Of a stretch of 64,000 nt of DNA, positions 29,483-63,315 are shown one piece after another (the stretch's first letter is position 1; every line of letters begins with the position of its first letter). Made by a program: the position numbers and the translations under genes. This stretch comes from a virus (lineage: Duplodnaviria; Caudoviricetes), in the IMG/VR virus record IMGVR_UViG_3300020112_000420, positions 1-64,000 of that record. One strand, written 5' to 3'. The notes beneath the pieces are model-generated. The model saw only the letters and a list, made by a program, of their open reading frames with translations. It searched no databases and was not told where the DNA came from.

Positions 29483-29498
29483 TTGACCCATTGGCTAT
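29483..29498 (+). promoter_or_regulatory. Putative late-promoter motif TTGACC-N3-TGGCTAT
   Basis: ttgacccattggctat, 22 nt upstream of ATG 29521. Confidence 0.6.
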
Positions 29499-29520
29499 CC
29501 GTGGAAGGGTTTTCAATGCT

Positions 29521-30648
29521 ATGGAAGACAATATCACGGAATTGGTAAGGGAGATTGGTCGATTTTCATCTGTTGGAAACGCTGTCCGTGTAATGGCAAC
29601 GGACATGCGTGATAGGTTGGGTCTAGAACACGACAAATTGGGTCGATTTGCCAAGAAGGACGGGAGTTCCTCCGAGACGGGTGTTGAGTTCGCTCTGTCG
29701 CTTGTTGACAAAAAGAAACTTGAGTCGGTTCGCGCCGTCGGAAACTATACGACGGCAGATGGAAAGAAGCACGACACGCGCATTAACAACAATACGGGTA
29801 AGCCGATTTCAAAGGCGTTGAACGACTGTATTGACGCGCTTATGTGCGGCGTAGCGGTCACGGCGGCGGAAATAGAGCAAACGCCCGAATGGAAGTTGGC
29901 GAGAGAGCAGTTGCGCCAGCACCGAGCGACGAATTGGAAGAAGAACGGATTTGTCTATACGCATAACATCGACACGAAGGAGCGCGGAGAACTCCGTAGC
30001 AAAGTCGAGAGTGACGCGCTTGCCGAAGTCATTACGCGGGAGCAGAATCCAGACGCATTCGACTATGCGGACAAGACTGGGGCTGAACTGAAGCCATGGA
30101 AGGTGAAGCGCGGTCATGTCATTGACGTTATCACGGGACTTCCCGCCGCTGGAAAGTCAACGACGTTTGCCAACAAACTGTCGGTCGAGAACGAGGCGCG
30201 TCTGATTGATTCTGACGAGTTCAAGAAGCGTATGCCCGAATACAACCGAGGTCTCGGCGCGGATATGGTTCACGAGGAGTCGTCCCGCATTGCCAAGCGT
30301 GTATTTCAGAAGGCGGTCGAGCGTGGCGAGAACATTACCTATCCCGTCATTGGTTTCAAGGCGGACAAGTTGCGCGAGATGTTCAAGTATCTGCGCGACA
30401 ACGGCTATACGATTCGCCTCCATTTGAACGAGATGGACGCGAACAAGGCGAAGGGGCGTATGCTTCTGCGGTTCGCGGAACGTGGTCGTTTTCTTCCCTT
30501 GTCGCTGTTCCGCAAGTACGGCAACAAGCCGACGGACGCTTACAACGCCGTCAAGGGCGAGGTGGACTTCTATGAGAAGTACCGTAGCGAGACGGGGATT
30601 GGCGAGAAGCCGAAACTCATTGAAAAGGGCGGCAAGGAATCCAAGTAA
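29521..30648 (+). CDS. Zeta-toxin-family P-loop kinase with long N-terminal extension
   Basis: VITGLPAAGKSTT, RLIDSDEFKKRMPEY, VHEES; N-terminal VMATDM and HDKLGRFAKKDG. Confidence 0.8.
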   Translation: MEDNITELVREIGRFSSVGNAVRVMATDMRDRLGLEHDKLGRFAKKDGSSSETGVEFALSLVDKKKLESVRAVGNYTTADGKKHDTRINNNTGKPISKALNDCIDALMCGVAVTAAEIEQTPEWKLAREQLRQHRATNWKKNGFVYTHNIDTKERGELRSKVESDALAEVITREQNPDAFDYADKTGAELKPWKVKRGHVIDVITGLPAAGKSTTFANKLSVENEARLIDSDEFKKRMPEYNRGLGADMVHEESSRIAKRVFQKAVERGENITYPVIGFKADKLREMFKYLRDNGYTIRLHLNEMDANKAKGRMLLRFAERGRFLPLSLFRKYGNKPTDAYNAVKGEVDFYEKYRSETGIGEKPKLIEKGGKESK

Positions 30649-30674
30649 TCTAACGAGAAAGGTCTGATAGGGTT

Positions 30675-30899
30675 ATGGCGGACAACCATGTGATTGGCGA
30701 CGACAAAAGCGCGGCGGAAGTTTACGCGGAATACAAGGACGGAATGATTGACCGCGAGATGTTCATGGAATGGCTTATCGAGCGTCACGATGCGAAACTC
30801 ATCGACGACGCGACGTATGACAAGTATGCGGACGAACTGACGTGCGACGTGTACGGCGAGACCGATACGGTGGCGGATGTCGAAGACGAGGAGGAGTGA
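30675..30899 (+). CDS. Small acidic protein (candidate antitoxin/immunity partner)
   Basis: Asp/Glu-rich 74 aa directly after the zeta gene. Confidence 0.55.
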   Translation: MADNHVIGDDKSAAEVYAEYKDGMIDREMFMEWLIERHDAKLIDDATYDKYADELTCDVYGETDTVADVEDEEE

Positions 30900-30904
30900 A
30901 GGTC

Positions 30905-32467
30905 ATGGCGGAAGAGAACGAGAATGTCGAGACGTTTGACGTGGCGGAAAGCGTCAGGGAGATTGCGCGTATGGCTTTGGATGCGTCCGAAGTCAAGCGT
31001 TCCGTGGCGGATTGCACGGCAAAGGGCGGCCCCGAAAACTGCCCGTACCACCGTCAGTTCATACATAAGGAAGGCGAAGGCGTAGCGTCATACTACAACA
31101 AGAAGAAGATTGTCGAAAAGAACGGCAAGCGCGTCTATATCGACACTGGCGCGTCGGAGAACAGCAAGTTTCTGACAGACAAGGAGAAGAAGGATGGCGT
31201 TCGGAGCGACCCCGAATTTGGAACGAAGATTTACAAGGGCGGAGAGAAGAAGCGCAAGCCACCGAAAGGTGCGCGTTCCATTGGTATTGTGTTGCCCGAA
31301 GCGAAAGCACCCGATGCCACGCCGAACCTTGACAGTTTCAAGAACGTGGAAGAGGTGCGCGTTGCCAAGATAAACGAACTCGCCGCCGACCAAGTGTACG
31401 TCCGTTCTGAAGACCCGATTGCTGGCGTTGAAATCAAGCAGAACGACCGACTGAAGAAAGAGGAGCGCGTCGCCAAGAAAGGCGAGGCGGGTATGCCCGT
31501 CTACAAGTGGACGAAGGGTGGCAAGGAAGTCGAGCCGTCTGAAGCGTTGCGCCTTGAAGCCGCGCTCGGAGAATTGAAGATCGGTGCGGCTCTTTCCGCC
31601 GACAGCGCGGACGTGAGGATTCGCGCCGATATTGCCAACGGGTTCGGGCAGATTGCGCAGTACAAGGACGGCAAGGGGAACGTGAAGTACGGCTATTCGC
31701 AGACGTTCAAGGACGCTTGCGCCATTGAGAAGTGGAAACGCCTTGAAGGTCTTTTCGGACATTACGATGACATTCTCCATAAAATCATGGGCGACTGTCA
31801 GAAGGGGCGCAAGGAGGCGATTATCGCCTACTTCATGTACCGAACGAAGTGCCGCATTGGGTCGAAGAGTAACCCGAAGCCGAACGAAGGGCGCGGGGCG
31901 ACTTCGCTCACGACGGGGAACTTCGCCGTGGATGGTGACGACGTGTTCCGCGTGTCGTTCCCCGCCAAGAACGGCTATTGGCACGTCAGTTGCCAGGACA
32001 AGTTCCTGACGGACTTCATTCGCAAGCGCAAGGAAGAGATACGGGCAAGCGGCGAAGGAATGAACAGCGAGAAGGTGTTTGGCGTTTCCTACGGTAAGGT
32101 CAACGACTATCTCAAAGAAATCAGCCGAGAGTATGTCGGAGGCGACGACAAGTTGGCGTTTCGTCCGCACAATTTCAGGCATTTCGCCGCAACCCGAATC
32201 GCCGTTCAGAAAATGGACGAGTTCGCGGCTGGCGTTGACCCCGAAAAAGACCCGTTGAAGTACCAGACAGCCGTGTGCAAGGCAATCACGGAAGCGGCGA
32301 AGGTACTCAACGATACCCCGAAGGTGGTTTACGAATCCTACGTCATACCGCGTATGCTCTATGCGAAGAATCCGAAGATGATGGTAGGGCAATTCCCGTA
32401 TTTGAGCGAAAAGCGCGGTCTTGAAGGTCTGACAATGGAAGACTTCGACGAGGACGACGACGACTAA
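30905..32467 (+). CDS. Type IB DNA topoisomerase with N-terminal extension
   Basis: QYKDGKGNVKYGY, CRIG(R), GATSL, FPAKNG(K), VNDYL, FRPHNFRH(R), VLNDTP.VVYESYV(Y): bacterial/poxviral TopIB pattern. Confidence 0.8.
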   Translation: MAEENENVETFDVAESVREIARMALDASEVKRSVADCTAKGGPENCPYHRQFIHKEGEGVASYYNKKKIVEKNGKRVYIDTGASENSKFLTDKEKKDGVRSDPEFGTKIYKGGEKKRKPPKGARSIGIVLPEAKAPDATPNLDSFKNVEEVRVAKINELAADQVYVRSEDPIAGVEIKQNDRLKKEERVAKKGEAGMPVYKWTKGGKEVEPSEALRLEAALGELKIGAALSADSADVRIRADIANGFGQIAQYKDGKGNVKYGYSQTFKDACAIEKWKRLEGLFGHYDDILHKIMGDCQKGRKEAIIAYFMYRTKCRIGSKSNPKPNEGRGATSLTTGNFAVDGDDVFRVSFPAKNGYWHVSCQDKFLTDFIRKRKEEIRASGEGMNSEKVFGVSYGKVNDYLKEISREYVGGDDKLAFRPHNFRHFAATRIAVQKMDEFAAGVDPEKDPLKYQTAVCKAITEAAKVLNDTPKVVYESYVIPRMLYAKNPKMMVGQFPYLSEKRGLEGLTMEDFDEDDDD

Positions 32468-32487
32468 TAGCGAAAGGAAACAGCGAA

Positions 32488-32847
32488 ATGGAAAGCAAGG
32501 ACATCATGACACCCGAAGCGTGGGAAGCGAAAAAGCGGGAAATCGTCAGCGATTTCGTCGGCAAGGAACTCGACAGGCTCGACGTGGCGGAAGCGGACGG
32601 CGTTCCGTTCGACGAAGCAGAAGGAGAAGGGAATGCGGATGTGGCGTTCGCGGATTCCGACATGGGCGCATTCATAGAGAAGTACCCAATGGCGGGAGAA
32701 GTTCTCGGCATGTTGGAAAAGGCGGATGGCGGCGAAGGCGGCGATGAAGTCTATGGTGGGAAGGTGGAATCGGACGGGTGCGTTTTCGCCATTACGAAGG
32801 ACGGGGAAAGTCCCGATTGGGACGATGACGAAGACGACGACGAATAG
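32488..32847 (+). CDS. Small very acidic protein
   Basis: Asp/Glu-rich; ends DWDDDEDDDE. Confidence 0.55.
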   Translation: MESKDIMTPEAWEAKKREIVSDFVGKELDRLDVAEADGVPFDEAEGEGNADVAFADSDMGAFIEKYPMAGEVLGMLEKADGGEGGDEVYGGKVESDGCVFAITKDGESPDWDDDEDDDE

Positions 32848-32873
32848 AATACGTTGGAAGCCATTGTAAAACA

Positions 32874-32916
32874 GCCGCCCCGTGCATTTGGTTAGCGTGT
32901 GCGGGGCGGTTTTTTC
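32874..32916 (+). terminator. Rho-independent terminator
   Basis: gccgccccgtgca / tgtgcggggcggt followed by tttttc. Confidence 0.7.
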
Positions 32917-32932
32917 GTCTTGAAAAATTCTT

Positions 32933-33035
32933 AAAATACCCCCTTGACGGTAGAGGCGATATTATGTTATCATAGTGTCGTCAAGAGGGGAAAAGGTTTC
33001 GCATGGTGCGGGACGCCCCGAATGGCGGAAAGTCA
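32933..33035 (+). promoter_or_regulatory. Early promoter P6 with leader
   Basis: aaaataccccc TTGACG(32944) N18 TATCAT(32968); gtcaagagggg; gcatggtgcgggacgccccgaatggcggaa. Confidence 0.75.
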
Positions 33036-33047
33036 AGGAGGTTGGTT

Positions 33048-33419
33048 ATGGCGCAGAAGTTGATTACCAAGGCAATCGAGAACGCGATTAGGAAAACGCC
33101 CTACGGTTCGCAGGACGGGAAGAAGGAGAACGCGAAAGTCATTGCGCGTCTGTTCGGCGGGAGCGTCACGGCGTACATTCTTGAGGGCTATCAGATGCCA
33201 AGCGAAGAATGGGACGGCAACACGGTGTACGGTTTGGTTGACATGGGCTATGGCTTTGAATACGGCCCGTTCAACCTCAACGACTTCAAGCGCGGATATG
33301 CCTACGGGCCGTTTCGTCTGCCTTATGAGCGCGATGCTTATGTCGGCGTTCTAAAGGAAACCATTGGCGATTTGTCGAAGGAAAACAACGAGACCGAGAA
33401 AATGCCGTTCGGAAAATAA
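33048..33419 (+). CDS. DUF2958-like protein
   Basis: KLITKAIE...PYGSQDG...VIARLF...AYILE...YGLVD.G..FEYGPFNL; AAGGAGG SD. Confidence 0.6.
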   Translation: MAQKLITKAIENAIRKTPYGSQDGKKENAKVIARLFGGSVTAYILEGYQMPSEEWDGNTVYGLVDMGYGFEYGPFNLNDFKRGYAYGPFRLPYERDAYVGVLKETIGDLSKENNETEKMPFGK

Positions 33420-33424
33420 CGAGG

Positions 33425-34514
33425 TTGAACATGGGAGCGGAAATCAACAAACTTATCAAAAGCGACGCGCTGACCAACAATCAGCGCGAGACGCTGTATC
33501 GCCGCCTTTGCTTCATTATGACGAAGCGACCGACGATGATACCCCGTTGCTATCTGTGCGACCCGTTCAATGAAATCATCGATGAAAAATTCATTATCTA
33601 TCCGCTGAAAGTGGAGAAGTGGATGAAGCGTCGTGGTCATTGTTTGAAGGAAAACGAGAGCATTAAGGAACTTGTCGAGCGGGTATACGGCAAGGAGGCG
33701 GTCAACATTATGCTCAAACTCATGTGACACGGAGGTAAAGCCATGAAATACATTAAGCCGAAGTTCGGTATACCTTTTGAAGTCGGAAAGCGTTATGCGG
33801 GTTCTTGCGTGTTTGGAATAGGGCGCATTGGCGGTGAGTACGATTTCCTTGACATGCAGATTGATTCGGTCGAGATTCTGCACCGTGACGGCGACGAACT
33901 GACGGTGTGCATTCACAATAACTACCACCCTTCGCTTGGTTGCTGTGTGTGCGAGACGAAACTTGTCACCGTCCATGTTGTCAAGTGCGGAAATAATTGC
34001 GAGTGCATTGGCGATGGCAACGGCGTTTTCTTCTCCAAGTATGAAATAAGCGATAGGGCATGTGATGCTTATGAGCGCAGGCTTCAAGTTTACGCGAGAA
34101 GGTGGCGGGCGAATAAAAGTAAGGAGGCGGCGGCATGAAACTGGGAAATTGTTTCAAAATGACGGGTCGCTATGATAACACGTTGGAGCAGACGGCTCTA
34201 TCCATTGAGCATGACCGCAATTGGTTCATCAATTGGGCAATGGGGCGAGGCATGACCTACAAGCAGGCTTTGCAGAAGTACAAGGAAATGATGACGAAGG
34301 ATGAAAGAAGAAAAAGGAGGTAGGAATGTCGGATTTTCAGATAATTGACCGACTTGAACAATTCTGTCGTGGTCAGGGAAAGTTCAAGTACAACAAGAAC
34401 ATGCGGCGTATCGAAAATGGCGCGGGGCAGTTGATTGACGAATCGTTGCTTGTTTCCATACTGAACGCTGTTTCGGAAAACGCCAAGAAACGGTATGACC
34501 GAAAGGATATGTAG
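33425..34514 (+). CDS. Four hypothetical ORFs (33425-33727, 33743-34138, 34135-34323, 34326-34514)
   Basis: Strong SDs; coupled. Confidence 0.5.
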
Positions 34515-34518
34515 AAAA

Positions 34519-35214
34519 ATGGGGTATTCTTACGCGAAGACGAATATCAACGGATGTTTCTTTGAACTGCACCATAGCGATTGCTTGGAGCAATTGCGCG
34601 GCGAGGTTGGGTTGACGGTTGACTTGGTGATGACGGACATTCCCTATGGGGAAGTGAATCGCAAGACGAACGGTTTGCGCGACCTTGACAAGAAGGCGGC
34701 TGACACCGTTGACTTTGACGTGTGCGAATTGACGAGGTTGCTGTGCGCCAAGACGAAGGGTAGTATTTACATGTTCTGCGGGACGGAGCAAGTGTCGGAC
34801 ATTCGGCGCACAATGGTCGAGTGTGGGCTGTCTACTCGGCTTATCGTGTGGGAAAAGACCAATCCGAGTCCGATGAATGGCGAGTACATTTGGTTGTCGG
34901 GTGTCGAGGTGTGCGTTTTCGGAAAGAAAAGCGGGGCGACGTTCAACGCCCGTTGCCGCAATACCGTCTTGCGATACCCGTGCGGTGAGCGCGACTTGCA
35001 CCCGACGCAGAAACCGCTGTTGCTCATTCAAGACCTCATAGAGGTATCGACGAAGGCGGGCGATGTTGTGTTCGACCCGTTCATGGGAAGCGGAACGACG
35101 GGCGTGGCGTGTGCCAATACGGGGCGTTGCTTCATTGGCATCGAGCGCGACGATGGCTATTACGCGATTTGCGAAAACCGCATCCGCAACGAAACGGAAG
35201 GGCGGCTGTTGTGA
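34519..35214 (+). CDS. DNA amino-methyltransferase (N6/N4 family)
   Basis: VMTDIPYG; HPTQKP; VFDPFMGSGTTGVAC; FIGIE. Confidence 0.9.
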   Translation: MGYSYAKTNINGCFFELHHSDCLEQLRGEVGLTVDLVMTDIPYGEVNRKTNGLRDLDKKAADTVDFDVCELTRLLCAKTKGSIYMFCGTEQVSDIRRTMVECGLSTRLIVWEKTNPSPMNGEYIWLSGVEVCVFGKKSGATFNARCRNTVLRYPCGERDLHPTQKPLLLIQDLIEVSTKAGDVVFDPFMGSGTTGVACANTGRCFIGIERDDGYYAICENRIRNETEGRLL

Positions 35215-35223
35215 TTTAATGCC

Positions 35224-35265
35224 ACAAACCCCATTGACGGCAAATGGGTAGTTGTGATATACTTA
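35224..35265 (+). promoter_or_regulatory. Early-type promoter P7
   Basis: acccca TTGACG(35234) N18 TATACT(35258). Confidence 0.65.
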
Positions 35266-35294
35266 CTCACGGTCAAAAAAAGAAAGGAATCGAA

Positions 35295-35684
35295 ATGGCA
35301 CAAGCAACATTCAACGGGGTCACGGGTGAGATAATCAACATGACCTTGAAATACCATTGGTTCAACCGCATTCTGTCGGGAAAGAAGCATATCGAGTACC
35401 GCGAAGCCAAGGACTATTGGCACAGCCGACTTATCGGACACGACTACAAGTTCATTCGGTTCAGCAAGGGCTATACAAGCACGTCGTTCGTCATCGAGTG
35501 CAAGGGCATCAAGGCGATGCTGATTGACAATCCGAACGTCGGTTCAGAACCAGAAGAGGACGAGAATTACGAGAAGGACTTTACCGAAGGTACGATTGCG
35601 CTGGATTCCGACGAGTTCGACAAGGACATCGTGGCGGAGTATCAGATTAAACTCGGCAAAATCGTCTCGCGCCACTTGTGCTGA
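35295..35684 (+). CDS. ASCH-domain protein
   Basis: LKYHWFNRILSGKKHIEYRE.KDYW.SRL...IRFSKGY. Confidence 0.7.
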   Translation: MAQATFNGVTGEIINMTLKYHWFNRILSGKKHIEYREAKDYWHSRLIGHDYKFIRFSKGYTSTSFVIECKGIKAMLIDNPNVGSEPEEDENYEKDFTEGTIALDSDEFDKDIVAEYQIKLGKIVSRHLC

Positions 35685-35724
35685 AGACGCGCTGATTTTT
35701 TGTTGGAAAGGAGAAAAAGGCAAA

Positions 35725-35988
35725 ATGAGAAAGCAAGACCCGAACACGCATTGTTTCGCCGTGCGCTGTCCGTTGCAAGTCGCGGCGAAAATCGTCACGG
35801 ACGCTGACGAAAAGGGAATCACCGCATCGGCTCTCATCGGAGCGGCGGCGGCTGAAAAGGTGAAGAACGTCAAGGCATCCCCGAAATCGCTGAAATGGGC
35901 GGCGGGTCGTCGTGCCGTGTACGCGGAACGCCGTCGCAAGATGGACGAACTCTACGGCAAGCGTAACAAGGGTGTGCGTAGCAAGTAA
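35725..35988 (+). CDS. Small basic DNA-binding protein (RHH-like)
   Basis: FAVRCPLQVAAKIVTDADEKGITASALI; AAAGGAG SD. Confidence 0.4.
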   Translation: MRKQDPNTHCFAVRCPLQVAAKIVTDADEKGITASALIGAAAAEKVKNVKASPKSLKWAAGRRAVYAERRRKMDELYGKRNKGVRSK

Positions 35989-36088
35989 TAGCGTCACAAA
36001 CGCGCCATTGCATGACGGGTAACGGGATTCTCGTCATTGCAATCCGCGTTCCGAACAAGAAAACAAAAGACAGAAACGGAGAATAATC

Positions 36089-37036: not shown

Positions 37037-37103
37037 TTTTTTCACATGGGGCAACGCCACTTATCCCCAGTAAAGGTGTGGCACAAAAAAGGAAAAAAAG
37101 ACC

Positions 37104-38030: not shown

Positions 38031-38038
38031 ACAACCCG

Positions 38039-38092
38039 TGGCGTTGGCACGGCACGACTTATCATCGACACGGTTGTGCCAACGCCATTTTT
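38039..38092 (+). terminator. Hairpin/terminator between recombination and replication genes
   Basis: Perfect 12-bp stem tggcgttggcac / gtgccaacgcca followed by ttttt. Confidence 0.55.
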
Positions 38093-38131
38093 CAATTCGG
38101 AAGGAATCACGAAAGGTGGAAAACACAAGCA

Positions 38132-53259: not shown

Positions 53260-55086
53260 ATGGTAAACTTATCCACGGGTCGTGACTTCGACGAAGCGGA
53301 CGAAGAGGAAAGCGGTAATGCCGACATTACCGAACACGCCTTTTTCGCCCCCGCGTTCTATGAAGCGTGGGACGATTGGATAACGGGTACTTACACCACG
53401 CCCGACGGAGTGACGCACACGTTGCGCGAGATGATTCTTGCGGGCGGGCGAGGTTGCGTGGACGGTGACACGCTTGTAGACACGCCTATGGGCAAGGTTC
53501 GCATCCGCGACTTCAAAGGCGGCAAAGTGCTGTGCTTTGACGGCGGGCGCATGACAGTTGGCGAGGCGAAGCGTCCGACAATGGGTACGGAAGAAGACCT
53601 TTATGCCGTGACGGTCGAGGACGGTCGAACGATTGTCTGCACCGACCAGCACAAGTTCCTTACGGGCGGCGGCAAGTGGAAGCAAATGTGCCAACTCGCC
53701 CTTGGAGAGCCGCTTGTCATGCTCGGAAAATGCGGCTACGCGGAGAGTGTCAGCGTTGCGTCCATACGTTTCGTCAAACGCGACTACTACTATGACCTCG
53801 ATGTCGTCGGGACGCACAACTACTTCGCCAATGGATTCCTCAACCACAATAGCACAAAGTCATCGTTTGCGGCGGCGGCTATCGTGCTGGCGTTGGAGCG
53901 CGATTGGCAAGACGCGGAAGACCGCAAGTGCGGGCGAAACGGCATGGGCATCGGGCCGAACCACGACCTTCCCGACAAGAAGTGGTATCGCCATCTGACG
54001 AACGCCATTGTCTATCGAAAGGTTGCCGCCACGCTTGCCGATTCCGTCTACAACCAATTTGCGCAGACGATGGGCGACTACATGGGCGAAGCGATAATGA
54101 ACCATTGGAAGTTCAGAAAATCGCCGCTCTCGATTGTCAACGAGGAGTCGGGTCAGGTCATTATGTTCCGTGGCTTGGACGACCCGCTGAAGTCGAAGTC
54201 CATCAAGCCGCCGAAGGGGTACTTCAGATACCTATGGTTGGAAGAATGGGCGGAGTTCGACGGCATGGAAGAAGTGCGTTCCGTCCGTCAGTCCATTCTT
54301 CGCGGCGGTAAGAAGATGCAGTCGATTTACTCGTACAACCCGCCCGAAACGTCGTCGAACTGGGTCAACGAGGAAGCGGAGCGCGTCGTCGAAGGGCGCA
54401 AACTCTACAAGTCGGACTACCTATCCGTGCCAAAGGAGTGGCTTGGGGAGGACTTCTTCATCGAAGCGGAGAACCTCAAAAAGCAGAACTACCGCGCCTA
54501 CCGCCACGAGTATTTGGGAGAAGTCACGGGTAATGGTGGAACGATATTCCCGAACCTCGTTGAGCGCGAGATTAGCGATGAAGAAATCAAACACTACGAC
54601 ATTATTAGGTATGGATTGGACTTTGGTTTTGCCATTGACCCTGCGGCGGTTGCGTTCCTTTACTATGACGTGACGAGAAGGCGCGTGGTGTGCTTTAACG
54701 AAATCTATGAAAGGGGATTGACAAACCAAGAACTTGCAGAGAAGGTGCTGAAGAAGATTGTCAACCTTGAGTTCGTCCATTGTGATAGTGCTGAACCGAA
54801 GTCGATAGCCGAACTCATATCGTGTGGCATCAACGCGCTTGCCGTCCGAAAAGGCCCTGACAGTATTCGTGCGGGCATCCACTTTTTGCAAAGTATGAAC
54901 TCGATTGAGTGCGACATGCGCAGAACGCCAAACTTTTACAATGAGTTCAAGAAGTATGAGTACGAGAAGGACAAGAGTGGAAATTTCGTGTCACGCTATC
55001 CCGACGGGAACGGCGTTGCGAACCATCTCATCGACGCCTGCCGCTATGGATTAGAGGATGATATGACGCACGGTGGACTGTTCTGA
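53260..55086 (+). CDS. terL: Terminase large subunit, PBSX type, containing an intein
   Basis: Walker A GGRG|STKS split by the intein; FRGLDDPLKSKSIK; LWLEEWAE; SYNPP; YGLDFGFAIDP; DSAEPKSI; NHLIDACRY. Confidence 0.92.
   Translation: MVNLSTGRDFDEADEEESGNADITEHAFFAPAFYEAWDDWITGTYTTPDGVTHTLREMILAGGRGCVDGDTLVDTPMGKVRIRDFKGGKVLCFDGGRMTVGEAKRPTMGTEEDLYAVTVEDGRTIVCTDQHKFLTGGGKWKQMCQLALGEPLVMLGKCGYAESVSVASIRFVKRDYYYDLDVVGTHNYFANGFLNHNSTKSSFAAAAIVLALERDWQDAEDRKCGRNGMGIGPNHDLPDKKWYRHLTNAIVYRKVAATLADSVYNQFAQTMGDYMGEAIMNHWKFRKSPLSIVNEESGQVIMFRGLDDPLKSKSIKPPKGYFRYLWLEEWAEFDGMEEVRSVRQSILRGGKKMQSIYSYNPPETSSNWVNEEAERVVEGRKLYKSDYLSVPKEWLGEDFFIEAENLKKQNYRAYRHEYLGEVTGNGGTIFPNLVEREISDEEIKHYDIIRYGLDFGFAIDPAAVAFLYYDVTRRRVVCFNEIYERGLTNQELAEKVLKKIVNLEFVHCDSAEPKSIAELISCGINALAVRKGPDSIRAGIHFLQSMNSIECDMRRTPNFYNEFKKYEYEKDKSGNFVSRYPDGNGVANHLIDACRYGLEDDMTHGGLF
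53455..53850 (+). mobile_element. Mini-intein (132 aa, no homing endonuclease) in the TerL Walker A motif
   Basis: Starts CVDGDTLV; block B CTDQHKF; ends YDLDVVGTHNYFANGFLNHN with +1 Ser. Confidence 0.9.
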
Positions 55087-55091
55087 TTTAT

Positions 55092-55548
55092 ATGCTTGAA
55101 GAATACGAAAACCGTCTCACGGGAGAGCGATACCCAATTTACGGCGACATGCGTTTGCCGCAGATTATATCCATTGTCAAGACATTGACGCGGTTATGGA
55201 ATGACCGTCGATTGAGTTTTGCCCGCATAGGCGACGGGGAACTTACGCTTATGGGCGGAAATGCGGGTTGCGTCTACGAGAAGGGTGGTGATGGGTTCGC
55301 TGAAATGGTGGCGCGTATGCTGACGGAGCGCAATGCCCGTTGCATGGTGGGTCTGTCGTTGCCGCATTATGAACGGGAGCGGCACGAAGTTGGTGTGCCT
55401 CTGTTGCGGGCCGCTTGCATCTGTTCTGGCGTGGGAGTTGTCGCACGAAATGCGCTGTCTCGACATGGGACACTTCCCACGGGAGTTCGCGGAGTTTGAG
55501 CAAGGTGTCGCGCCTACGAAGAATTTTGGGCTGTTTTTCTGCTCGTGA
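55092..55548 (+). pseudogene. GT-D-fold (DUF1792-like) glycosyltransferase with internal deletion and frameshift
   Basis: N-part SIVKTL..SFARIGDGEL...MVGLSLP in the frame of 55092; C-part LVCLCCGPLASVLAWEL..CLDMGH in the frame of 55333-55548; central region missing. Confidence 0.65.
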
Positions 55549-55549
55549 T

Positions 55550-55565
55550 TTGACCTTATGGCTAT
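55550..55565 (+). promoter_or_regulatory. Putative late-promoter motif TTGACC-N3-TGGCTAT
   Basis: ttgaccttatggctat, 20 nt upstream of the portal ATG. Confidence 0.6.
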
Positions 55566-55585
55566 CATCGGAAAGGTGTAGACCT

Positions 55586-57472
55586 ATGTTTGGCAAGATT
55601 AAAGACATATTCGGCAAGGGCAAGCCGTTGGAAGAAGTGAAGAAACCGAAGCGCGAGAAGTCCGCGCTTGAGCGCATTAAGGAGAACCGCGCCCTCAACG
55701 GGCGACCGAAGGTCGGACTGCACAAGACGTTCGACAAGGAAGCCGCGCTGAAGCGGTGCTTTCCCCGTCAGGGCGTAGGCACGAACAAGGGCATTTGCAT
55801 TACGCCCGACGTGCCGATGGGTTCGGCGGCGAACGGTGCGTCAGACGCGCCCCGTGGCACGGTGGCGACGGACGCAAGCGAGGAGGGTGGCGCGGAGGCG
55901 GCGCGTCGCCAAGACCAGTTGGAGCGCATGGAGTATTTCAACCCGCTGTCCCGTTGGGGCATGGACGAGAAGGTGCTGGAACTCTACGAGAGCCGCGTCT
56001 TCATCGGATTCCCCGCAATGGCGCAGATTGCGACGCATGAAATCGTCTGCGGTGCGCTCGACATTCCCGCGAAGGACGCAATCGCGAAGGGCTACACGAT
56101 TGACATTGCCAACGAGGGCGGCGAAGAGAGCGACAAGGACAATGACGGCGTGGACGAGAAGAACGCCGACATGGTGCGGAAGATTCTGAAGGTGGCGGAC
56201 GGCGAACACCGCATCGGCAACGTGTGCCGCAACTTCTGCTTTCAGAAGCGCGAGTTCGGCGTGGCGTATGCCGTGCCGATTTTCAAGGACGAGGAGAACC
56301 ACGACTACAGCAAGCCGTTCAACCCCGACGGCATTGCGAAGGATTCCTTCATCGGCATGAAGGTCATCGAGCCGATTTGGATGTCTTGGGAGTTCAAGAA
56401 GGCGGACGCGAACAACCCGCTGGCGTTTTCGTTCTACGAACCGGAGTGGTATCGCGTCCAGGGCAACGAGCGCATCCATAAGTCGTGGGTCGTCAAGGCG
56501 ATACACGTCCCCGTGTCGGATTTGAAGAAGCCGACCTACTACTTCGGCGGCATGTCGCTGACGCAGATGATTTACGAGCGCATGTACTGCGCGGACAAGT
56601 GCGCCAACGAAGCCCCGATGTTGGTTATGACGAAGCGTCTGTTGGTTGCCGACGCGAACGTGCAGGCGATGCTGTCGGACGACACCGTGGCGAAGAAGAC
56701 GATGGAATCGCTCAACTACTTCCGCGACAACTTCAGCGTGTTCTTCAAGAACCCGAACACGCAAGTCAACCAGATTGACACCTCGTTGGAAGGCGTGGCG
56801 CAGACGGGCATGACGATGTATCAGTTGTGCGCGGCAATCGCGGGTATGCCCGTCACCAAGTTGATGAAGAACGTGCCGACGGGACTCCAAAGCACGGGCG
56901 ACTACGAGATGGCGGACTACCACGAGTTGCTGACGGAAATCCAGGAGCATGACTACAAGCCGCTCATGGATATGTACTTCAAGTGCCTCACCAAGTCGAT
57001 GTTCGGCAAGGTGATAGACGTTGTGGTGAAGTTCAACCCGCTCGACACGCCGAAGCGGGGCGAAATCGTGCAGGAGGAGTCGTCGTTGGCTTCCACGATT
57101 TCGACGTATCTGACGGCGAACGTGATTACGATTGAAGAGGCGCGTGACATTCTTCGCAAGCGCAAGGACGGTTTCTTTTCGGGCATTGGCAAGGTGCTTC
57201 CCGAAACGTTGGAGAAGCGCAAGCAGACGGAACTCGCGCAACTCGACCAGCAGATACAGCAGGCGAAACAGCCGCAGAACCCGATGGGCGGCATGGGCGG
57301 AGAGCCGACGGCGGAGAACGACCCCGCCGCGCAGGAGGAAGAGCAGTTGACATCCCAAGCGGTAGCCGAAGCGGAGAAGGTGATTCAAGGCAACGGCGCG
57401 GAAGGTGGCAAGGAAGAGGAAGGTGGCGAGAACGCCGAACAGCCGCCGAGCAAGGAAAGCGCGGAGGGATAA
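55586..57472 (+). CDS. Portal protein, DUF1073 (HI1409) family
   Basis: FIGFPAMAQIA..., NPLAFSFYEPEWY, IHKSWV, YFGGMSLTQ, IAGMPVTKL...PTGLQSTGD; position after TerL. Confidence 0.85.
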   Translation: MFGKIKDIFGKGKPLEEVKKPKREKSALERIKENRALNGRPKVGLHKTFDKEAALKRCFPRQGVGTNKGICITPDVPMGSAANGASDAPRGTVATDASEEGGAEAARRQDQLERMEYFNPLSRWGMDEKVLELYESRVFIGFPAMAQIATHEIVCGALDIPAKDAIAKGYTIDIANEGGEESDKDNDGVDEKNADMVRKILKVADGEHRIGNVCRNFCFQKREFGVAYAVPIFKDEENHDYSKPFNPDGIAKDSFIGMKVIEPIWMSWEFKKADANNPLAFSFYEPEWYRVQGNERIHKSWVVKAIHVPVSDLKKPTYYFGGMSLTQMIYERMYCADKCANEAPMLVMTKRLLVADANVQAMLSDDTVAKKTMESLNYFRDNFSVFFKNPNTQVNQIDTSLEGVAQTGMTMYQLCAAIAGMPVTKLMKNVPTGLQSTGDYEMADYHELLTEIQEHDYKPLMDMYFKCLTKSMFGKVIDVVVKFNPLDTPKRGEIVQEESSLASTISTYLTANVITIEEARDILRKRKDGFFSGIGKVLPETLEKRKQTELAQLDQQIQQAKQPQNPMGGMGGEPTAENDPAAQEEEQLTSQAVAEAEKVIQGNGAEGGKEEEGGENAEQPPSKESAEG

Positions 57473-57628
57473 ATGCCGACGTTGCCGAAGGGTGAGCCGC
57501 TTCCGCTTGTGAAAAAGGAAAACGCGACGCTGGCATTTCTCAAAAAGTGGTTGCCTCGGTTCGTCGTGAAGACACGGGACGCGACGGGGCGACCGACCAT
57601 CTTCATTGGGTTCAAATGGAAGTTTTAG
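57473..57628 (+). CDS. Small hypothetical protein (51 aa, absent from the ORF track)
   Basis: Starts immediately after the portal stop; ends FIGFKWKF. Confidence 0.4.
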   Translation: MPTLPKGEPLPLVKKENATLAFLKKWLPRFVVKTRDATGRPTIFIGFKWKF

Positions 57629-57704
57629 GACTTGGGCGAACGCCCGCATCGTCGTTGGTGGTGTTCTGAACGGGCGGCGGTGCGGGCGAAAACCCTAACG
57701 AAAA

Positions 57705-57737
57705 GGCGGTTTTCATAGCGAAAGCCGCCATTTTTTT
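57705..57737 (+). terminator. Rho-independent terminator
   Basis: ggcggttttc / gaaagccgcc followed by attttttt. Confidence 0.65.
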
Positions 57738-57754
57738 CGCCCTAAAAAAAGTTT

Positions 57755-57840
57755 AAAATACCCCCTTGCGCGGTAGATGCGATTTATGGTATCATATTGG
57801 TGTCGAAGGGATAAGAGGAAGGCAAGGTGCTGACCGAACT
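57755..57840 (+). promoter_or_regulatory. Early promoter P10 with partial leader
   Basis: aaaataccccc TTGCGC(57766) N18 TATCAT(57790); ggcaaggtgctgacc. Confidence 0.7.
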
Positions 57841-57943
57841 TTGCAAGTATATCGACGAAGGCGGGTACAACCCGAAAATCAAAAAATACGTTCGTTCGCA
57901 AAATTGGGTTGCGGCGGCATAACGGGAAATGAGGAGGTGCGAT

Positions 57944-59578
57944 ATGGCGAACACGAAAGAGAGAAATGCGAAAATCGTCCAGTTCTTCGACGAGGCATTT
58001 GACGAGGAAATGGAACGCAAGTTCAAGGACATGCTCAAGGCGCATTTGTTGGATAACAAGGTCTATGTTTTCGGACACGGGAACTACACCATTGTTCACC
58101 CCCGAAACGGGCGGCTGATGGTCATGCGCGACAAGAGCGCGGCGACGGCGTTTGCGGCGATTCACGAAATCAAGTTTGACAATTGGAGGTGATTGAAAAT
58201 GGACTACATGATGATGGCTACCCACTTCTTCGGCACGGCGCAAGACTTGACGCTCAATGCGAAAGGGTGCGAATACTACGTCTCTATCAGCAAGGGCGGG
58301 TTCAGATACCGCGATACCGAATACGAGGACGATAAGTTTGAGTGCGCGGGTTCGCCAGCCTTTCCGACATACCAGGCGGCGGCGGAGTTCTATTGCAAGT
58401 TGGCGGCGGAGTTCGGTGCGGGCAACTATGATTGGGAGCATCGCGCCCGTTTCGTCAGGGAAGGTGAAATCGCGTAATACGGAGGTTGAAACAATGAAGC
58501 GCAAGCAGAAAGACGGCGGCGGTTTTTGGGTTGAGGTGTCGCGTGAAGGTGACACGAGCGGGGCGCGTATCGACTTCGGGCAACTGCACAAGTTCAAGAC
58601 GCGCCTGGGCGCGGTAGCGTTCGGCACAAGGTTTGTGGAACTATTCTACGACACAATGGCGGATGAGAAGTATACGAAGAAGCGGCTGAACCTTCCCGAT
58701 GTGGCGAATGCGCTTCTATCGGGTGGCAACGTGATTTGCATGGGTCACGAGTTCCTTGTTTGCGGTGGAAAATGAAAGCGAAACGCATTGCAATCGGTCA
58801 TTACAACTATCGTGGTTTAGACATTAGAAGGCACGATGGACGCGGTGTTTCTCATTGGCGTTGGGTATGGGAGATAACCGATAATGATGGCTGTTGGGGA
58901 CATTGGCCAACGCTTGAAATGTGCAAGGACGACATTGATTCAGAAATAGAGAAAGAAAATGCGAAGAAAAGCGGTCACAACGGTTGAGAGCGAAATGCCG
59001 ATGACGGCGTTGCGCAAGGTGCTGTCAATAGCCGAAGACGGCAATCTGACGGAGCGCAAGCGTCTCTCGATGATAGTCAAGGCGGTTCGCATGGCGTTGA
59101 AGAGGAACGACAAGCCGAAGGCGAGGACATGGATTCAGCGCGAACGCGAGGCGTTCCTACGGAGATGGGGCGTATCGTATGCTTATGCGGAGCATTTATG
59201 GTATACTGAAGTCGTGGCGGGAAGGCGCATATCGTCTGATTTTCAAATGGCTATCGTGCGACATGCACAGTTGGAATGCGCGTGGGAAGAGACGGGCGAA
59301 CGCCCCAAGGAGATTGAATAAGTATGACGCAATATGAATACGAGCGCAAGACGACGGGTGAAATGCGGGCTATGCGGCGCGAAATGGCGCGGCGGGCGCG
59401 GTCTTGCTTTTGGTATGCGGTGGGTCATTTCTGTTTGGCGGTGATGACATTCGCCATTCCCCGCGTTGGTCGCCGCGAACGCATGAAGTGCCTAGATGGT
59501 TGGTTCACTATGGGTATGTATCGAAGCGGAATCAAGGTATTGCTTCAGCATAAGGGCGTGGCAGAGCCATTGTTTTGA
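57944..59578 (+). CDS. Six small early-type hypothetical ORFs (57944-58192, 58199-58477, 58494-58775, 58772-58987, ~58959-59321, 59324-59578)
   Basis: Strong GGAGG SDs; coupled; driven by P10. Confidence 0.55.
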
Positions 59579-59590
59579 GTTTATGAAAAA

Positions 59591-59674
59591 CGGAAGGTGT
59601 CAGAATCGGTCAATGAACTGGTCTCATAATCCAGCGCGAAAGCATTGCGGGTTCGAGTCCCGCCCTTCCGACCA
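59591..59674 (+). tRNA. tRNA with CAT anticodon (elongator Met or Ile2), extended variable region
   Basis: Acceptor cggaagg/ccttccg + A + CCA; D-arm tca/tga; anticodon loop ctCATaa (59625-27); T-arm gcggg TTCGAGT cccgc. Confidence 0.9.
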
Positions 59675-59688
59675 TTTTAGTTGTCTGT

Positions 59689-59704
59689 TTGACCGTGTGG
59701 CTAT
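59689..59704 (+). promoter_or_regulatory. Putative late-promoter motif TTGACC-N3-TGGCTAT
   Basis: ttgaccgtgtggctat, 21 nt upstream of ATG 59726. Confidence 0.6.
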
Positions 59705-59725
59705 TGTTGAACGGAGTTTACAAAC

Positions 59726-60601
59726 ATGAGCCATAAAGAAGCAGTTGACAGCCTTTTGAGCGAACTTATCGGCAAGCGTGTCCGCACGATTGCCCATGAT
59801 GCTCTTGAAACCATGAATAAAGCACCGACTTCCACGGCGGTTGGTGGTGGCGACGGAGATGGCGACGAAAAGACCATTGAGGAGCATGACAGGAAGCATC
59901 ATCCCGATGGCTACAAAGGCGGCAAATGCTCATGGCGCGATAAACACGGCATGACGGCGGGACAAGTTGCGACGGGAGCGAGTGGCGCAAGCGGTGCGGC
60001 GGTGGCGACGACAACTCCGACTTGGAACACGGGCGTGACTGCCACGGGCGCAAGCGGTGCGCCGAGCAACGAGGCGACGGGCGCGACGGGGGAAAGTGGA
60101 AACGCCGAGCCGATGGAAAAGGACTTCACGGGCATCAAGGATGGCAAGGTTTGGAAGTCTGGAGCGGAACTTGCGCCGACTTTCCAAGATGAAGGAACGA
60201 AGTCGAAGTACCGCATGGCGCGAAACAAGTTCGTGCGCGAACTCCTCGGCAAGGAGGATGGCACTTTCGACCTTGAATCTGGCAATCCCGTGTCCTACAA
60301 CGACGGCTATCAGGTTGCGTTTCAGACCACGGAATCCGAAGATGGCAAAATGTCGGACGAGGAATATGACAAGATTGTGGAAGAGATTGTAAAGGCAACG
60401 GGCGCAAAGCCGAACCTTGGCAATTTTGAAGTGCCGGAGATTTCGTTCCATGTCGCCACGAAGAAGCAGGCGAAGGAACTTATGAAGAAGTACAACCAGC
60501 ATTCGATATGGGATTGGAAGGCTGGCGACATAATTCTAAACGAAGACCTTGACGTTGCGACGAACAGCGTCAAGAGCGGAGAAAACAAGGAGGAGAAGTA
60601 A
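59726..60601 (+). CDS. Head-region protein: shared N-terminal His/Cys module, Gly/Ala/Thr linker, globular C-terminal domain
   Basis: IAHDAL; GGDGDG..TIEEHDRKHHPDGYKGGKCSWRDKHG; repeated ATGASG linker. Confidence 0.7.
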   Translation: MSHKEAVDSLLSELIGKRVRTIAHDALETMNKAPTSTAVGGGDGDGDEKTIEEHDRKHHPDGYKGGKCSWRDKHGMTAGQVATGASGASGAAVATTTPTWNTGVTATGASGAPSNEATGATGESGNAEPMEKDFTGIKDGKVWKSGAELAPTFQDEGTKSKYRMARNKFVRELLGKEDGTFDLESGNPVSYNDGYQVAFQTTESEDGKMSDEEYDKIVEEIVKATGAKPNLGNFEVPEISFHVATKKQAKELMKKYNQHSIWDWKAGDIILNEDLDVATNSVKSGENKEEK

Positions 60602-60605
60602 TACC

Positions 60606-60926
60606 ATGATTGACGAAGCGAAGTTGGACGAGGCGTTGGCGGCGTTTTTGTCGAACCCGAAATGGGCGGAATACTACGGTAATGCGCCGAGCGGAGCAAA
60701 GGAACTCATTGCGCTTCAGTTCTATCGTTCCCATGTGGATGACGAGGACACGCCCGAAATGCTGGAACTCGTGAAAGAGACGAAGGAAGCATTGGATGGC
60801 GAGGATTTGGACTATCTGATTGAGAATTGCCCTAATGCTCAGGCGAAGGCGGAGTACCGCGCTTTGAAGGATAATCGCGGAGGTGGCGTTCAGACTGATG
60901 GAGCGGCGGTTGGCGAAGGCAAGTGA
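60606..60926 (+). CDS. Small acidic protein (candidate partner/immunity)
   Basis: AGGAG SD; acidic helical 106 aa. Confidence 0.6.
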   Translation: MIDEAKLDEALAAFLSNPKWAEYYGNAPSGAKELIALQFYRSHVDDEDTPEMLELVKETKEALDGEDLDYLIENCPNAQAKAEYRALKDNRGGGVQTDGAAVGEGK

Positions 60927-61043
60927 TTTGTGTTGGTTGGGTGTTGTTTCATGGTTGGTTGTGTTCATGGTTACTCCTTGGTTTGGGTGAACGGCTAAAA
61001 GGTAGGCCGTAGAAGGTAAAACGCGGCAAATGCTTGCGTTTTA

Positions 61044-61091
61044 GGGCGGGTTCGGGGTCTGCAAGGGTTTCCTCGTTCCCGCCCCTTTTTT
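61044..61091 (+). terminator. Rho-independent terminator
   Basis: gggcgggttcgggg / cctcgttcccgccc followed by a T-run. Confidence 0.55.
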
Positions 61092-61105
61092 GACCTAGTG
61101 GCTAT
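61090..61105 (+). promoter_or_regulatory. Putative late-promoter motif TTGACC-N3-TGGCTAT
   Basis: ttgacctagtggctat, upstream of 61132/61141. Confidence 0.6.
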
Positions 61106-61131
61106 GGTTAGATAGACAAGCATTAGGAGAA

Positions 61132-63315
61132 GTGCCGAAAATGACAAACAGAGAGTTCTTGCTTGAGGCGATTAAGAAAGCCATTGCGGTGAGCGGTGGC
61201 ATTGAAGCATTTGACGAAATGCCGAAGCCGAACATGGGGGCTGGCATGGGCAAAGGCGGGAACGGAGGCACGGCTGGCGGCGGTGGTGCTATGGGCGGAT
61301 TGGGCGGCGACGGCGATGGGAGCGAGGCGACGCTTGAAGAGCATGACAAGCGGTGGCATCCCGACGGCTACAAGGGAGGGCCGTGCGGTTGGCGCGAGAA
61401 GCACGGCATACCAACTACCGACCCGAACGGAGGAAAAGACCCCAAGGCGCAGAAAGCGGCGAAGGAAGCGGTCAAGGGGACAAACATCAACCCCGATAAC
61501 GTATCAGAGGTCTGGACGCCTGGTCAGAAGCCGCAAGTCATCCAACAGCCCGAAGGCGAGTTGAAGAACACGCAAGGCGGTCTTGGCGACTTGAAATCAC
61601 CGAAGAGCGCGGAGAACGTGGAGAAGTTGGAGCAGTTGAACGCGCAGGCGAAGACACCCCAGCAGAAGACGCTCATACAGGAAATATACGCACGGCTCAA
61701 GTACAAGTTGGGCAATCTCGGCATTTCGGGCGGCGCGGAGGCGGGTTCAACGGGAGCGGCGGCTGGCGGTCAGCCCGAAGCGAAGTACGAGAAAGAAGAG
61801 GATATTCCCTATCTCGACGACATTTCGGACGATGACTATGCGAAACTGTCCCCGACGCAAAAGAAGCAGATTGACGAAAAGGAAGACAAGAGAATCGAAG
61901 AAGAGGCTAAAAAGGGCGACGAAGAATTGGACAAGGAGTTTGCCGAGAAGGAGAAGAGCGACAAGAAGGAATCGGACAAGCGCATCAAGGCACTTGACAA
62001 AAAGATAGCATCCGAGCGCAAGAAACTTGTCGCCAAGCAAGTCGGCATACTGCGCGAGAACGAGCGCAAGGCGTTCCGCAAGTCCTATGACGACGAGTTC
62101 AACGCCATCGAGAAGCGGGTCAAGAGCGGAGAGATTACTCGCAAGCAGGGCGACCGCTTGCAGAAGAAGGCGGAAGACAAGTATTTCAAGGCGCACGAAG
62201 GTTGGAGCGCGAAGAAGGACGAGGACTATTTGGCTGAAGCGAACAAGCGCGTTGGCGAACTGTTGGCTAATGCGTATCAGCCGAAGCCTCCCGCCGAAGG
62301 GGCGAAGCCCGCATCGAAAGCGCGTCAGCAGTTCCAACATGCGCTAGGAAACGCGCACAAGGGAGCGGCGGAACGCGCAAACGGCGCGACGGCGGACGGT
62401 GGAGACAACAAGGGAGATGACATTCTTAACATGTCGCAGGAGGACTTCGACAAGTTGCCCGATGACCAGAAGCGCACGAAGTACATGGAATATCTGCAAA
62501 AGGCGCATGGTCTCAAGGGTTTCGCAAGCGAAGCGGAAACGCCAGATTTCGACAGGATTTCCCCCGAAGAATACAAGAAACTCAATCCTCTTCAGCAGAT
62601 GCAAGTGACGGAGAAGTATCACAAGGCAATGGCTGAAGCGAAAAAGCCGAAGCCTGAAGCGGCGGCGAAGATTAAGCCATATACTCCTAGTTGGGCGGGC
62701 AAGCCGCTGGCGAAGCCGCCGACACCTATGCGCAAGAAGTTGGGTGACGCGCTTCAGCGTTGGGGCAAGGCGTTGAGCGATATGGGCGAAGGCAAGGTAC
62801 AGCACACATACCGAGACTTGGCAATGAAGCACAAGTTGGAGATGAAGGCGCGGGGCATCGACATTTCCACGCCGAAGCATTGGAGCGTCAAGGACTTGAT
62901 GGCTGACAAGCAGAATGCAATCGCCGAGCAGAAGTACGGGGCTGAAGCTGACATGCGGCTGGGTGGTGGTCATCAACCGCAAGGCAATCCTAACGCGCAA
63001 CCGTCGGGGAAAGTCGGAGGCGCGGAGAACAAGTCCGATGGTCTGACGCTCCACAAAAACTCTCTGTTTGGAGAAATCAAGAACCTCGACAATCCGGACG
63101 TGATGGGAATGGCTCTCGACATTGAGAAGGAATACAACGATGCGAAGCGGAGCGGCGATAGAAAGAAAATGATGTCGCTGATGAAAGAGTGGAAGTCGTT
63201 GAAGAAGCAAATGGACGGCGATGATGAAGATGGCGACGAGCAGAAGCGTTGGAACGCAATGGCGGACAAGGGCGTGAAGACGCGGACGAACTACGGAAGT
63301 CCAGACTTTTCATAA
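61132..63315 (+). CDS. Large charged low-complexity head-associated protein with the same N-terminal module as 59726
   Basis: EAFDEM; GGDGDG..TLEEHDKRWHPDGYKGGPCGWREKHG; Lys/Glu/Asp-rich helices. Confidence 0.7.
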   Translation: MPKMTNREFLLEAIKKAIAVSGGIEAFDEMPKPNMGAGMGKGGNGGTAGGGGAMGGLGGDGDGSEATLEEHDKRWHPDGYKGGPCGWREKHGIPTTDPNGGKDPKAQKAAKEAVKGTNINPDNVSEVWTPGQKPQVIQQPEGELKNTQGGLGDLKSPKSAENVEKLEQLNAQAKTPQQKTLIQEIYARLKYKLGNLGISGGAEAGSTGAAAGGQPEAKYEKEEDIPYLDDISDDDYAKLSPTQKKQIDEKEDKRIEEEAKKGDEELDKEFAEKEKSDKKESDKRIKALDKKIASERKKLVAKQVGILRENERKAFRKSYDDEFNAIEKRVKSGEITRKQGDRLQKKAEDKYFKAHEGWSAKKDEDYLAEANKRVGELLANAYQPKPPAEGAKPASKARQQFQHALGNAHKGAAERANGATADGGDNKGDDILNMSQEDFDKLPDDQKRTKYMEYLQKAHGLKGFASEAETPDFDRISPEEYKKLNPLQQMQVTEKYHKAMAEAKKPKPEAAAKIKPYTPSWAGKPLAKPPTPMRKKLGDALQRWGKALSDMGEGKVQHTYRDLAMKHKLEMKARGIDISTPKHWSVKDLMADKQNAIAEQKYGAEADMRLGGGHQPQGNPNAQPSGKVGGAENKSDGLTLHKNSLFGEIKNLDNPDVMGMALDIEKEYNDAKRSGDRKKMMSLMKEWKSLKKQMDGDDEDGDEQKRWNAMADKGVKTRTNYGSPDFS

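Follow-up and report, generated by a model that had tools for sequence, protein, structure and literature searches.

We analysed a 64,000-nucleotide stretch of DNA (hereafter the window), which is the first 64 kb of the virus record IMGVR_UViG_3300020112_000420, a single contig of 86,458 bp. Within it four unrelated proteins, a zeta-toxin-type kinase (29521), a type IB topoisomerase (TopIB, 30905) and two proteins referred to by their start positions as 59726 and 61141, carry an N-terminal leader with an Asp site that recurs in the capsid, portal and protease-scaffold proteins of the same phage. We consider it probable that all four proteins are loaded into the phage head and cleaved after this Asp.

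The cut site can be read from the capsid protein, which in this phage matches Pa193 gp26 at 7.5e-55. The mature capsid N-terminus of the PB1-like phage KPP12 was determined by Edman degradation as SNFTAPVTT (PMC3474789), and this sequence lies directly after GSAMD64 in the capsid proteins of Pa193 and PB1. Therefore, the protease of this lineage cuts after Asp in A-M-D/S (a slash marks the cut here and below); experimental evidence for cleavage after Asp comes from this one homologous capsid protein of KPP12. The KPP12 cut position aligns with FAGD66/AAE of the capsid protein studied here, and Asp occupies the aligned position in every other lineage in which it could be read, as G-Q-D/A (L004), G-M-D/A (L003) and A-T-D/A (L009). 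The model of the E217 capsid protein begins at residue 66 (PMC10329688). Sites of this kind are repeated in the head proteins of the phage: the capsid protein has three of the [AT]-x-D type (Asp 22, 46 and 66) and the protease-scaffold protein has five, each followed by S or H, x, E. The near-identical site VATDASE that the initial annotation had seen in the portal is present; in E217 the modelled portion of the portal begins with residue 97. Homologous portals have AAMD/SAE (L004), VAMD/SAD (L003) and VAMD/SAY (PB1), with the PB1 site, S-V-A-M-D/S, being a near-repeat of the proven capsid site. The motif is thus common to capsid protein (three), protease-scaffold (five), portal (one) and the leaders of the four candidate cargo proteins, and is kept in relatives. 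We propose that one protease may trim capsid protein, portal and its own scaffold part at these like sites. We found no publication stating an Asp specificity for this protease lineage.

The candidate protease is encoded outside the window, in a PB1-like head module at 74.2-79.3 kb of the genome. Gene order in this module is ferritin-like protein, a 363-aa (amino acid) protein containing HPRGKGGQF, DUF2213 protein, cement protein of the E217 gp24 type and capsid protein (PF09950). Its last part, from the protease-scaffold gene to the capsid gene, spans genome positions 75955-79345. The model of the N-terminal domain of the DUF2213 protein has as its best structural match the T4 gp21 protease (5jbl_A, Z 8.2, root-mean-square deviation 3.5 A over 125 aligned residues); the next match is the varicella-zoster virus protease (Z 5.8), with herpesvirus proteases following gp21. 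Residues H71, S126 and H156 are invariant, and the C-terminal half of the protein corresponds in alignment to the portion of Pa193 gp24 observed as scaffold within the capsid. Together with the Pfam and PHROG matches of the protein (Table 1), the model points to a prohead protease in the head module that has the gp21/assemblin fold and is joined to the scaffold in one chain.

The leaders of the four candidate cargo proteins end in MATD/M (29521, Asp 28), MALD/ASE (30905, Asp 26), IAHD/AL (59726, Asp 25) and EAFD/EM (61141, Asp 25), and the translations bear out the claim that four unrelated proteins have an A-x-D site in an N-terminal extension. The Asp is conserved within each family. Among 12 TopIB sequences (41-84% identity) R18 and D26 are the sole invariant residues before the Cys knuckle. 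All nine close homologues of the kinase keep [VI]-A-x-D/[MK]-R-D followed by LGLEHD..GRF, most members of the 59726 family have R-x-[IV]-A-x-D/[AS]-x-E, and three of the four 61141 homologues retain the Asp, followed by E-M or Y. Like leaders are found elsewhere in this genome, in the MuF protein (V-R-T-V-A-Y-D/A), the ferritin-like protein and the neighbour of the latter. These comparisons support an N-terminal leader that is potentially cleavable after Asp: the residue is invariant or near-invariant in four families and its surroundings match the sites in capsid protein, portal and protease-scaffold.

Behind the Asp site stands one of four types of short module (His/Cys, Cys knuckle, HPR-GxF and WITV-G-H-I), and the type varies within a family. 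In the 59726 family we counted the His/Cys module in 10 members, HPR-GxF in four and WITV-G-H-I in three; in the zeta kinase family His/Cys in two, Cys knuckle in seven and HPR-GxF in 11, with the more distant homologues carrying other modules than the close ones. TopIB homologues have the Cys knuckle (12) and none of the other three types, and the 61141 family has the His/Cys module (five) and likewise none of the others. A repeated count of the His/Cys modules of 59726 (59873-59950) and 61141 (61330-61407) gave the same result as before, 19 of 26 residues identical with GGDGDG in front of both. A segment of TopIB, C..KGGPE.C.YH..F.H, had been put forward as related; it is present, as the knuckle Cys-x8-Cys-x2-His-x4-His, and is invariant in 12 homologues. 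Its kinship to the His/Cys module is uncertain, as the order of ligands differs. A check for fusion of the tag module to diverse domains was positive, with modules swapped within both the zeta and the 59726 families. Moreover, the same modules occur at domain junctions of portal and scaffold extensions (L003 and L004), and one lies between a protease domain and a zeta kinase in a single protein (P0061). A leader is missing from some members that do carry a module, e.g. P0008, P0046 and P0047.

The genes of the candidate cargo are tied to those of the head by a 16-bp motif, TT[GT]AC-N4-[TC]GGCTAT, of which the genome has 11 copies, all on the plus strand and all intergenic. Copies precede the zeta-TopIB unit, the portal, 59726, 61141 and, at 63532, a lipoprotein-like gene; outside the window they stand before the gene for the MuF protein, that for the ferritin-like protein and that for the protease. 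That a late-type motif heads each unit was thus confirmed, all three cargo units having a 16-bp copy; TopIB has no copy of its own and is served by that of the zeta unit. Since the motif heads both, the candidate cargo units and the head genes have the same type of promoter.

The kinase matches PF06414 (3.9e-14, 53 bits against a cut-off of 22.3) and conserves Walker A (GLPAAGKST) and DSD. Its link to head proteins is direct in other phages, four database proteins (P0061, P0065, P0070 and P0071) having a zeta kinase and DUF2213 in one chain, and two contigs of metagenome-assembled genomes (L018 and L019) placing a zeta domain within proteins of 1288 and 2556 aa. TopIB matches PF01028 (Topoisom_I; 8.3e-7, 29 bits against a cut-off of 23.7). 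With R317, K355, R425, H426 and Y479 invariant in 12 homologues, it is predicted to have the Arg, Lys, Arg, Tyr catalytic core of type IB enzymes. TopIB homologues share short contigs with homologues of 59726 and of the kinase. TopIB and 61141 are assigned to the cargo because of leader, module and promoter, together with these contigs shared by TopIB and 59726 or zeta homologues.

The 59726 protein has 19 homologues. In L008 its C-terminal domain forms the end of a portal protein, and in L014 the domain is embedded in a polyvalent protein of 2591 aa. The model of this domain is confident (predicted local distance difference test, pLDDT, ~90), and it has no match in Pfam or PHROG and no Foldseek match at E <= 0.001. 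Its top structural matches are weak and are to S-adenosylmethionine (SAM) lyases (7ock_L, Z 5.4; 6zm9_A, Z 4.4, 22% identity; Foldseek E ~0.5). We considered the SAM lyases T3 SAMase and Svi3-3; hhalign against T3 SAMase gave a probability of 0.3% and a profile search of the PDB returned none. The 61141 protein likewise has no Pfam or PHROG match. Only four homologues were found among 1.84 billion representatives, all of which keep the His/Cys module. Long, charged and largely non-globular, it is probably an internal head or ejection protein.

Three of the four tagged genes were said to be directly followed by a small acidic open reading frame (ORF), and all three ORFs are present and gene-like: 30675, 32488 and 60606 have Shine-Dalgarno sites and gene-like G+C at third codon positions, and encode the three most acidic of the genome's 85 small proteins. 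No meaningful Pfam match was found for any of them even at E 10. Of these suggested partners of the preceding gene, only one has a conserved gene order. Homologues of 60606 lie directly downstream of the same C-terminal domain in L007, L008 (two copies), L017 and, weakly, L009, and its synteny is conserved; for 32488 no relatives were found in the Atlas, where its model has a pLDDT of 0.40 and looks disordered. It also contains a site-like GVPFD/EAEG at residue 42. At other loci with the 59726-type domain an unrelated small ORF occupies the same place, a turnover that, as far as gene order can indicate, is typical of effector-immunity pairs. By its position 30675 would be the partner of the kinase, as we infer; that the acidic proteins neutralise the cargo is a guess.

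Table 1. Positions of the candidate cargo genes, their neighbours and related head genes. Coordinates are those of the window unless marked as genome.
Feature	Position	Strand	Description
Promoter-like motif	29483..29498	+	heads the unit zeta - 30675 - TopIB - 32488
Zeta-toxin-type kinase	29521..30648	+	leader residues 1-28 ending VRVMATD/MRD; HPR-GxF-type module LEHDKLGRF; kinase domain
Acidic ORF	30675..30899	+	74 aa, isoelectric point (pI) 4.05, net charge -19; directly after kinase
Type IB topoisomerase	30905..32467	+	leader ends VREIARMALD/ASE; knuckle C37-H54; predicted catalytic core; acidic tail
Acidic ORF	32488..32847	+	119 aa, pI 4.05, net charge -28; directly after TopIB
Promoter-like motif	55550..55565	+	upstream of portal gene
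Portal with N-terminal extension	55586..57472	+	VATD/ASE, Asp codon ~55871-55873 (residue ~96); PF06381 2.9e-56
Promoter-like motif	59689..59704	+	upstream of 59726
59726 protein	59726..60601	+	leader RVRTIAHD/ALE; His/Cys module; Gly/Ala/Thr-rich linker; conserved ~140-aa C-domain
Acidic ORF	60606..60926	+	106 aa, pI 4.33; after 59726
Promoter-like motif	61090..61105	+	upstream of 61141
61141 protein	61141..63315	+	724 aa, Lys/Glu-rich; leader GIEAFD/EMP; Gly-rich linker; His/Cys module 61330-61407
MuF/SPP1-gp7-like protein	genome 71663		
DUF2213 protein	12.6 kb beyond window		427 aa; Pfam 1.2e-35; PHROG head maturation protease 8e-68

Essentially all genes of the record are on the plus strand. 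The portal is ~30-35% identical to portals of BcepF1-, PB1- and Felix-like myophages. No close relative was found in 50,697 GenBank phage records, either by DNA search or by protein search with TopIB, and the zeta kinase gave distant matches only in the same records. Scans of IMG/VR with TopIB, the zeta kinase and the His/Cys module as queries, and a metagenome scan with a TopIB profile, returned no matches. G+C content climbs from ~0.44 to 0.55 exactly at the start of the zeta-TopIB unit (window 29000-31000), which suggests a module boundary. Runs of Asp and Glu end TopIB (FDEDDDD), 30675 (VEDEEE), 32488 (DDDEDDDE) and a post-capsid protein (L001:15517-15939, RDDDDE), and the acidic tail of TopIB is kept in 12 of 12 homologues.

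Several further genes deserve a brief description. The ferritin-like gene (genome 74228-74797, L001:10228-10797; Pfam Ferritin 8e-7) has its own late-type motif and lies in the head module upstream of the prohead protease, a setting that recalls the ferritin-like cargo of encapsulins. The leader of its product has two Asp sites, EIAAD/E and DVFD/AW, and is shared by the product of the neighbouring gene (L001:10820-11911), which carries the HPRGKGGQF module. In the relative L003 both the portal (1188 aa, L003:1918-5484) and the protease-scaffold (898 aa, L003:6426-9122) are hugely extended, the extra domains being bounded by WITV-G-H-I and RD..GRF motifs and one of them appearing ADP-ribosyltransferase-like by eye. 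The large terminase (53260-55086) has a long N-terminal part and an Intein_splicing match (PF14890, 2.4e-10) near residues 173-197, and on this basis seems to bear an intein; its N-terminus also scores as a site (GRDFD/EADE, residue 11). The lipoprotein-like gene (63625-64182), whose late-type motif is at 63532, crosses the window edge and encodes a signal peptide ending in Cys. Lastly, the end of the contig has collagen-like Gly-x-y repeats (genome positions 86164-86458), and its start is occupied by a large gene (1-2537). The genome is probably circularly permuted, with the contig broken within a tail-fibre gene.

From the gene identities, the promoter motif, the conserved Asp, the module swapping, the fusions in other phages and the protease fold we infer targeting, cleavage of the cargo, injection and partner function along the following lines. 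The kinase, TopIB, 59726 and 61141 would be made late, alongside the head proteins. By analogy with the capsid-targeting sequence of T4, a helical leader of ~20-28 residues ending in [IVM]-A-x-D would bring each protein into the assembling prohead, and there the DUF2213 prohead protease of this phage would cut the leader off after Asp. The mature cargo would then begin with one interchangeable module, perhaps binding DNA or the portal for co-ejection, and would exit together with the DNA when the next cell is infected. The acidic ORFs would encode cognate partners, acting as inhibitor, chaperone or counter-ion.

Several observations weigh against this account. A-x-D by itself is a weak motif, common by chance; the case rests on conservation in homologues and on context, not on a motif count. 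A simple site pattern at residues 12-50 is found in 11 of 133 proteins, eight of the 11 in head or late units, a pattern that was defined after viewing the data. When a position-specific scoring matrix was built from leaders of the 59726 family, the zeta and MuF leaders did not score above shuffled proteins. The first Asp site in 59726 and 61141 lies 25-40 residues N-terminal of the His/Cys module, which leaves the position of the mature N-terminus in doubt; a second cut may fall at GDGDG. No portal or protease fusion was found for TopIB or 61141, and among the acidic partners conserved synteny is confined to 60606. The initial annotation had regarded the tagged proteins as enzymes, which the conserved catalytic motifs bear out for the kinase and TopIB; for 61141 this was rejected, there being no detectable domain and only the four homologues. 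Moreover, the E217 and Pa193 structure papers do not call gp24 a protease and leave cleavage open, and the system is known here from the genes of an uncultured phage alone.

The proteins could be head cargo and yet be addressed by the short module, with the leader being no more than a propeptide, there to hold the enzyme inactive or to show where cleavage occurs. No other N-terminal element is indeed as well conserved as the modules; different modules can occupy one and the same position, they recur at portal and scaffold junctions and at the protease-zeta junction, and they stand in some members that lack a leader. We nevertheless judge this unlikely, given that the capsid protein and portal have Asp sites and no module and that in T4 targeting is done by the cleaved N-terminal peptide (PMC3012670), while conceding that nothing here separates the roles of leader and module. 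More improbable still is that these are late cytoplasmic enzymes with toxin-antitoxin-like partners, left unpackaged, in which A-x-D is a chance match of a short motif in N-terminal helices, TopIB relaxes or resolves replicated DNA before packaging and the kinase acts on host metabolism. The chance frequency of A-x-D and the failed test between families would fit, as would the position of the zeta-TopIB unit among replication genes, 23 kb from the portal, and the small antitoxin that classically accompanies zeta kinases. Against this, the Asp and an upstream Arg alone are invariant in an otherwise free TopIB leader, an identical layout is seen in four unrelated families, and other phages have the zeta domain in one chain with the prohead protease; the zeta-TopIB unit uses the head-gene promoter motif, and short contigs are common to TopIB and 59726 homologues.

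The conserved small ORF behind the 59726-type domain in many loci, which switches family between loci as immunity genes do, also raises the idea of polymorphic toxin-immunity pairs directed at competing phages or serving exclusion, with the acidic ORFs as immunity genes and delivery by a route other than the head. We give this very little credence: no signal for secretion or lysis-linked delivery was seen, and the domains show links to the genes for portal, MuF and protease. It is hardly a separate model, as it is compatible with head delivery. Loading into the head with cleavage after Asp thus remains the account that we favour. It can be widened into a general code, in which Asp site and modules together address and release head cargo in phages with a DUF2213 protease and in polyvalent proteins, so that any enzyme with leader, Asp and module would be loaded, trimmed and co-ejected, TopIB would be delivered with the genome and the acidic inhibitor would stay behind. 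Poxviruses deliver a type IB topoisomerase with their genome. We regard this wider code as a tentative proposal, and rather doubtful.

The nearest known system is that of T4, in which the unrelated proteins IPI-III and Alt share only a short leader that takes them into the scaffolding core, is removed by the prohead protease and leaves the proteins to be injected with the DNA (PMC3012670). A similar layout, with a short leader on unrelated proteins, is proposed here, and the protease is predicted to have the gp21 fold. Unlike in T4, the protease is a DUF2213 protein fused to the scaffold, the cut would follow Asp in A-x-D and not Glu in I/L-x-E, the candidate cargo includes a zeta-type kinase and a TopIB, and there are extra interchangeable modules and acidic neighbour genes. 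The motif of the prohead protease in phiKZ and SPN3US is S/A/G-x-E. A large set of head proteins and ejected proteins in these phages is reported to be processed at a single short motif that can be recognised in the sequence (PMC5694885, PMC7411985, PMC10052503). The present phage differs in protease lineage and in the residue before the cut (P1), and is a much smaller phage with a PB1-like head module of the T=9 type.

Effector domains also enter the host in the phage head as polyvalent proteins and as MuF- or portal-fused effectors (Iyer et al. 2017, PMC5512222). MuF toxins are followed by immunity genes. The likeness here is that zeta and 59726-type domains are found in such multidomain proteins and portal fusions, with small ORFs downstream. 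Unlike polyvalent proteins, the candidate cargo has one recognisable domain per protein, on separate polypeptides with their own leaders, and the prohead protease, rather than a zincin-like peptidase, is the enzyme to which we assign processing. Iyer et al. do not report TopIB among polyvalent domains; 'topoisomerase' occurs a single time in their paper, in the reference list (PMC5512222). Several disparate effector domains in one polypeptide were not found in this phage with Pfam or PHROG. Loading in phage P1 depends on DarA/Hdf order and is not known to use a shared leader. The accessory proteins of the P1 Dar system are reported to be loaded into the head in a process coupled to morphogenesis and act on entry (PMC12810830, PMC9024508). 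We found no homology to this system. AvrRxo1, an effector delivered by injection, has the gene of its partner downstream, and AvrRxo1/Arc1 and zeta/epsilon are kinase-partner pairs. The zeta-type P-loop kinase next to a small ORF, whose partner role would follow from position, resembles these; unlike epsilon, classically upstream, the neighbour lies downstream, and it has no Epsilon_antitox match even at E 10.

Compared with T4-type targeting and polyvalent effectors, what is new is the protease family, the Asp at P1, the cargo, the layer of modules and the acidic neighbours. The case contributes an experimental footing for cleavage after Asp, through the KPP12 capsid protein, and TopIB as a candidate cargo. 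If the proposed loading and cleavage hold, the cut site of DUF2213 prohead proteases, a widespread and unstudied family present in PB1-like therapeutic Pseudomonas phages and in many uncultured phages, would be readable from sequence; for cultured PB1-like phages the prediction is a portal cut at V-A-M-D/S. Head cargo would then be predictable in thousands of phage genomes, and foreign proteins could be directed into non-T4 heads by a compact tag taken from this system. Moreover, the enzymes known to enter the host along with phage DNA would come to include a zeta-type kinase and a type IB topoisomerase.

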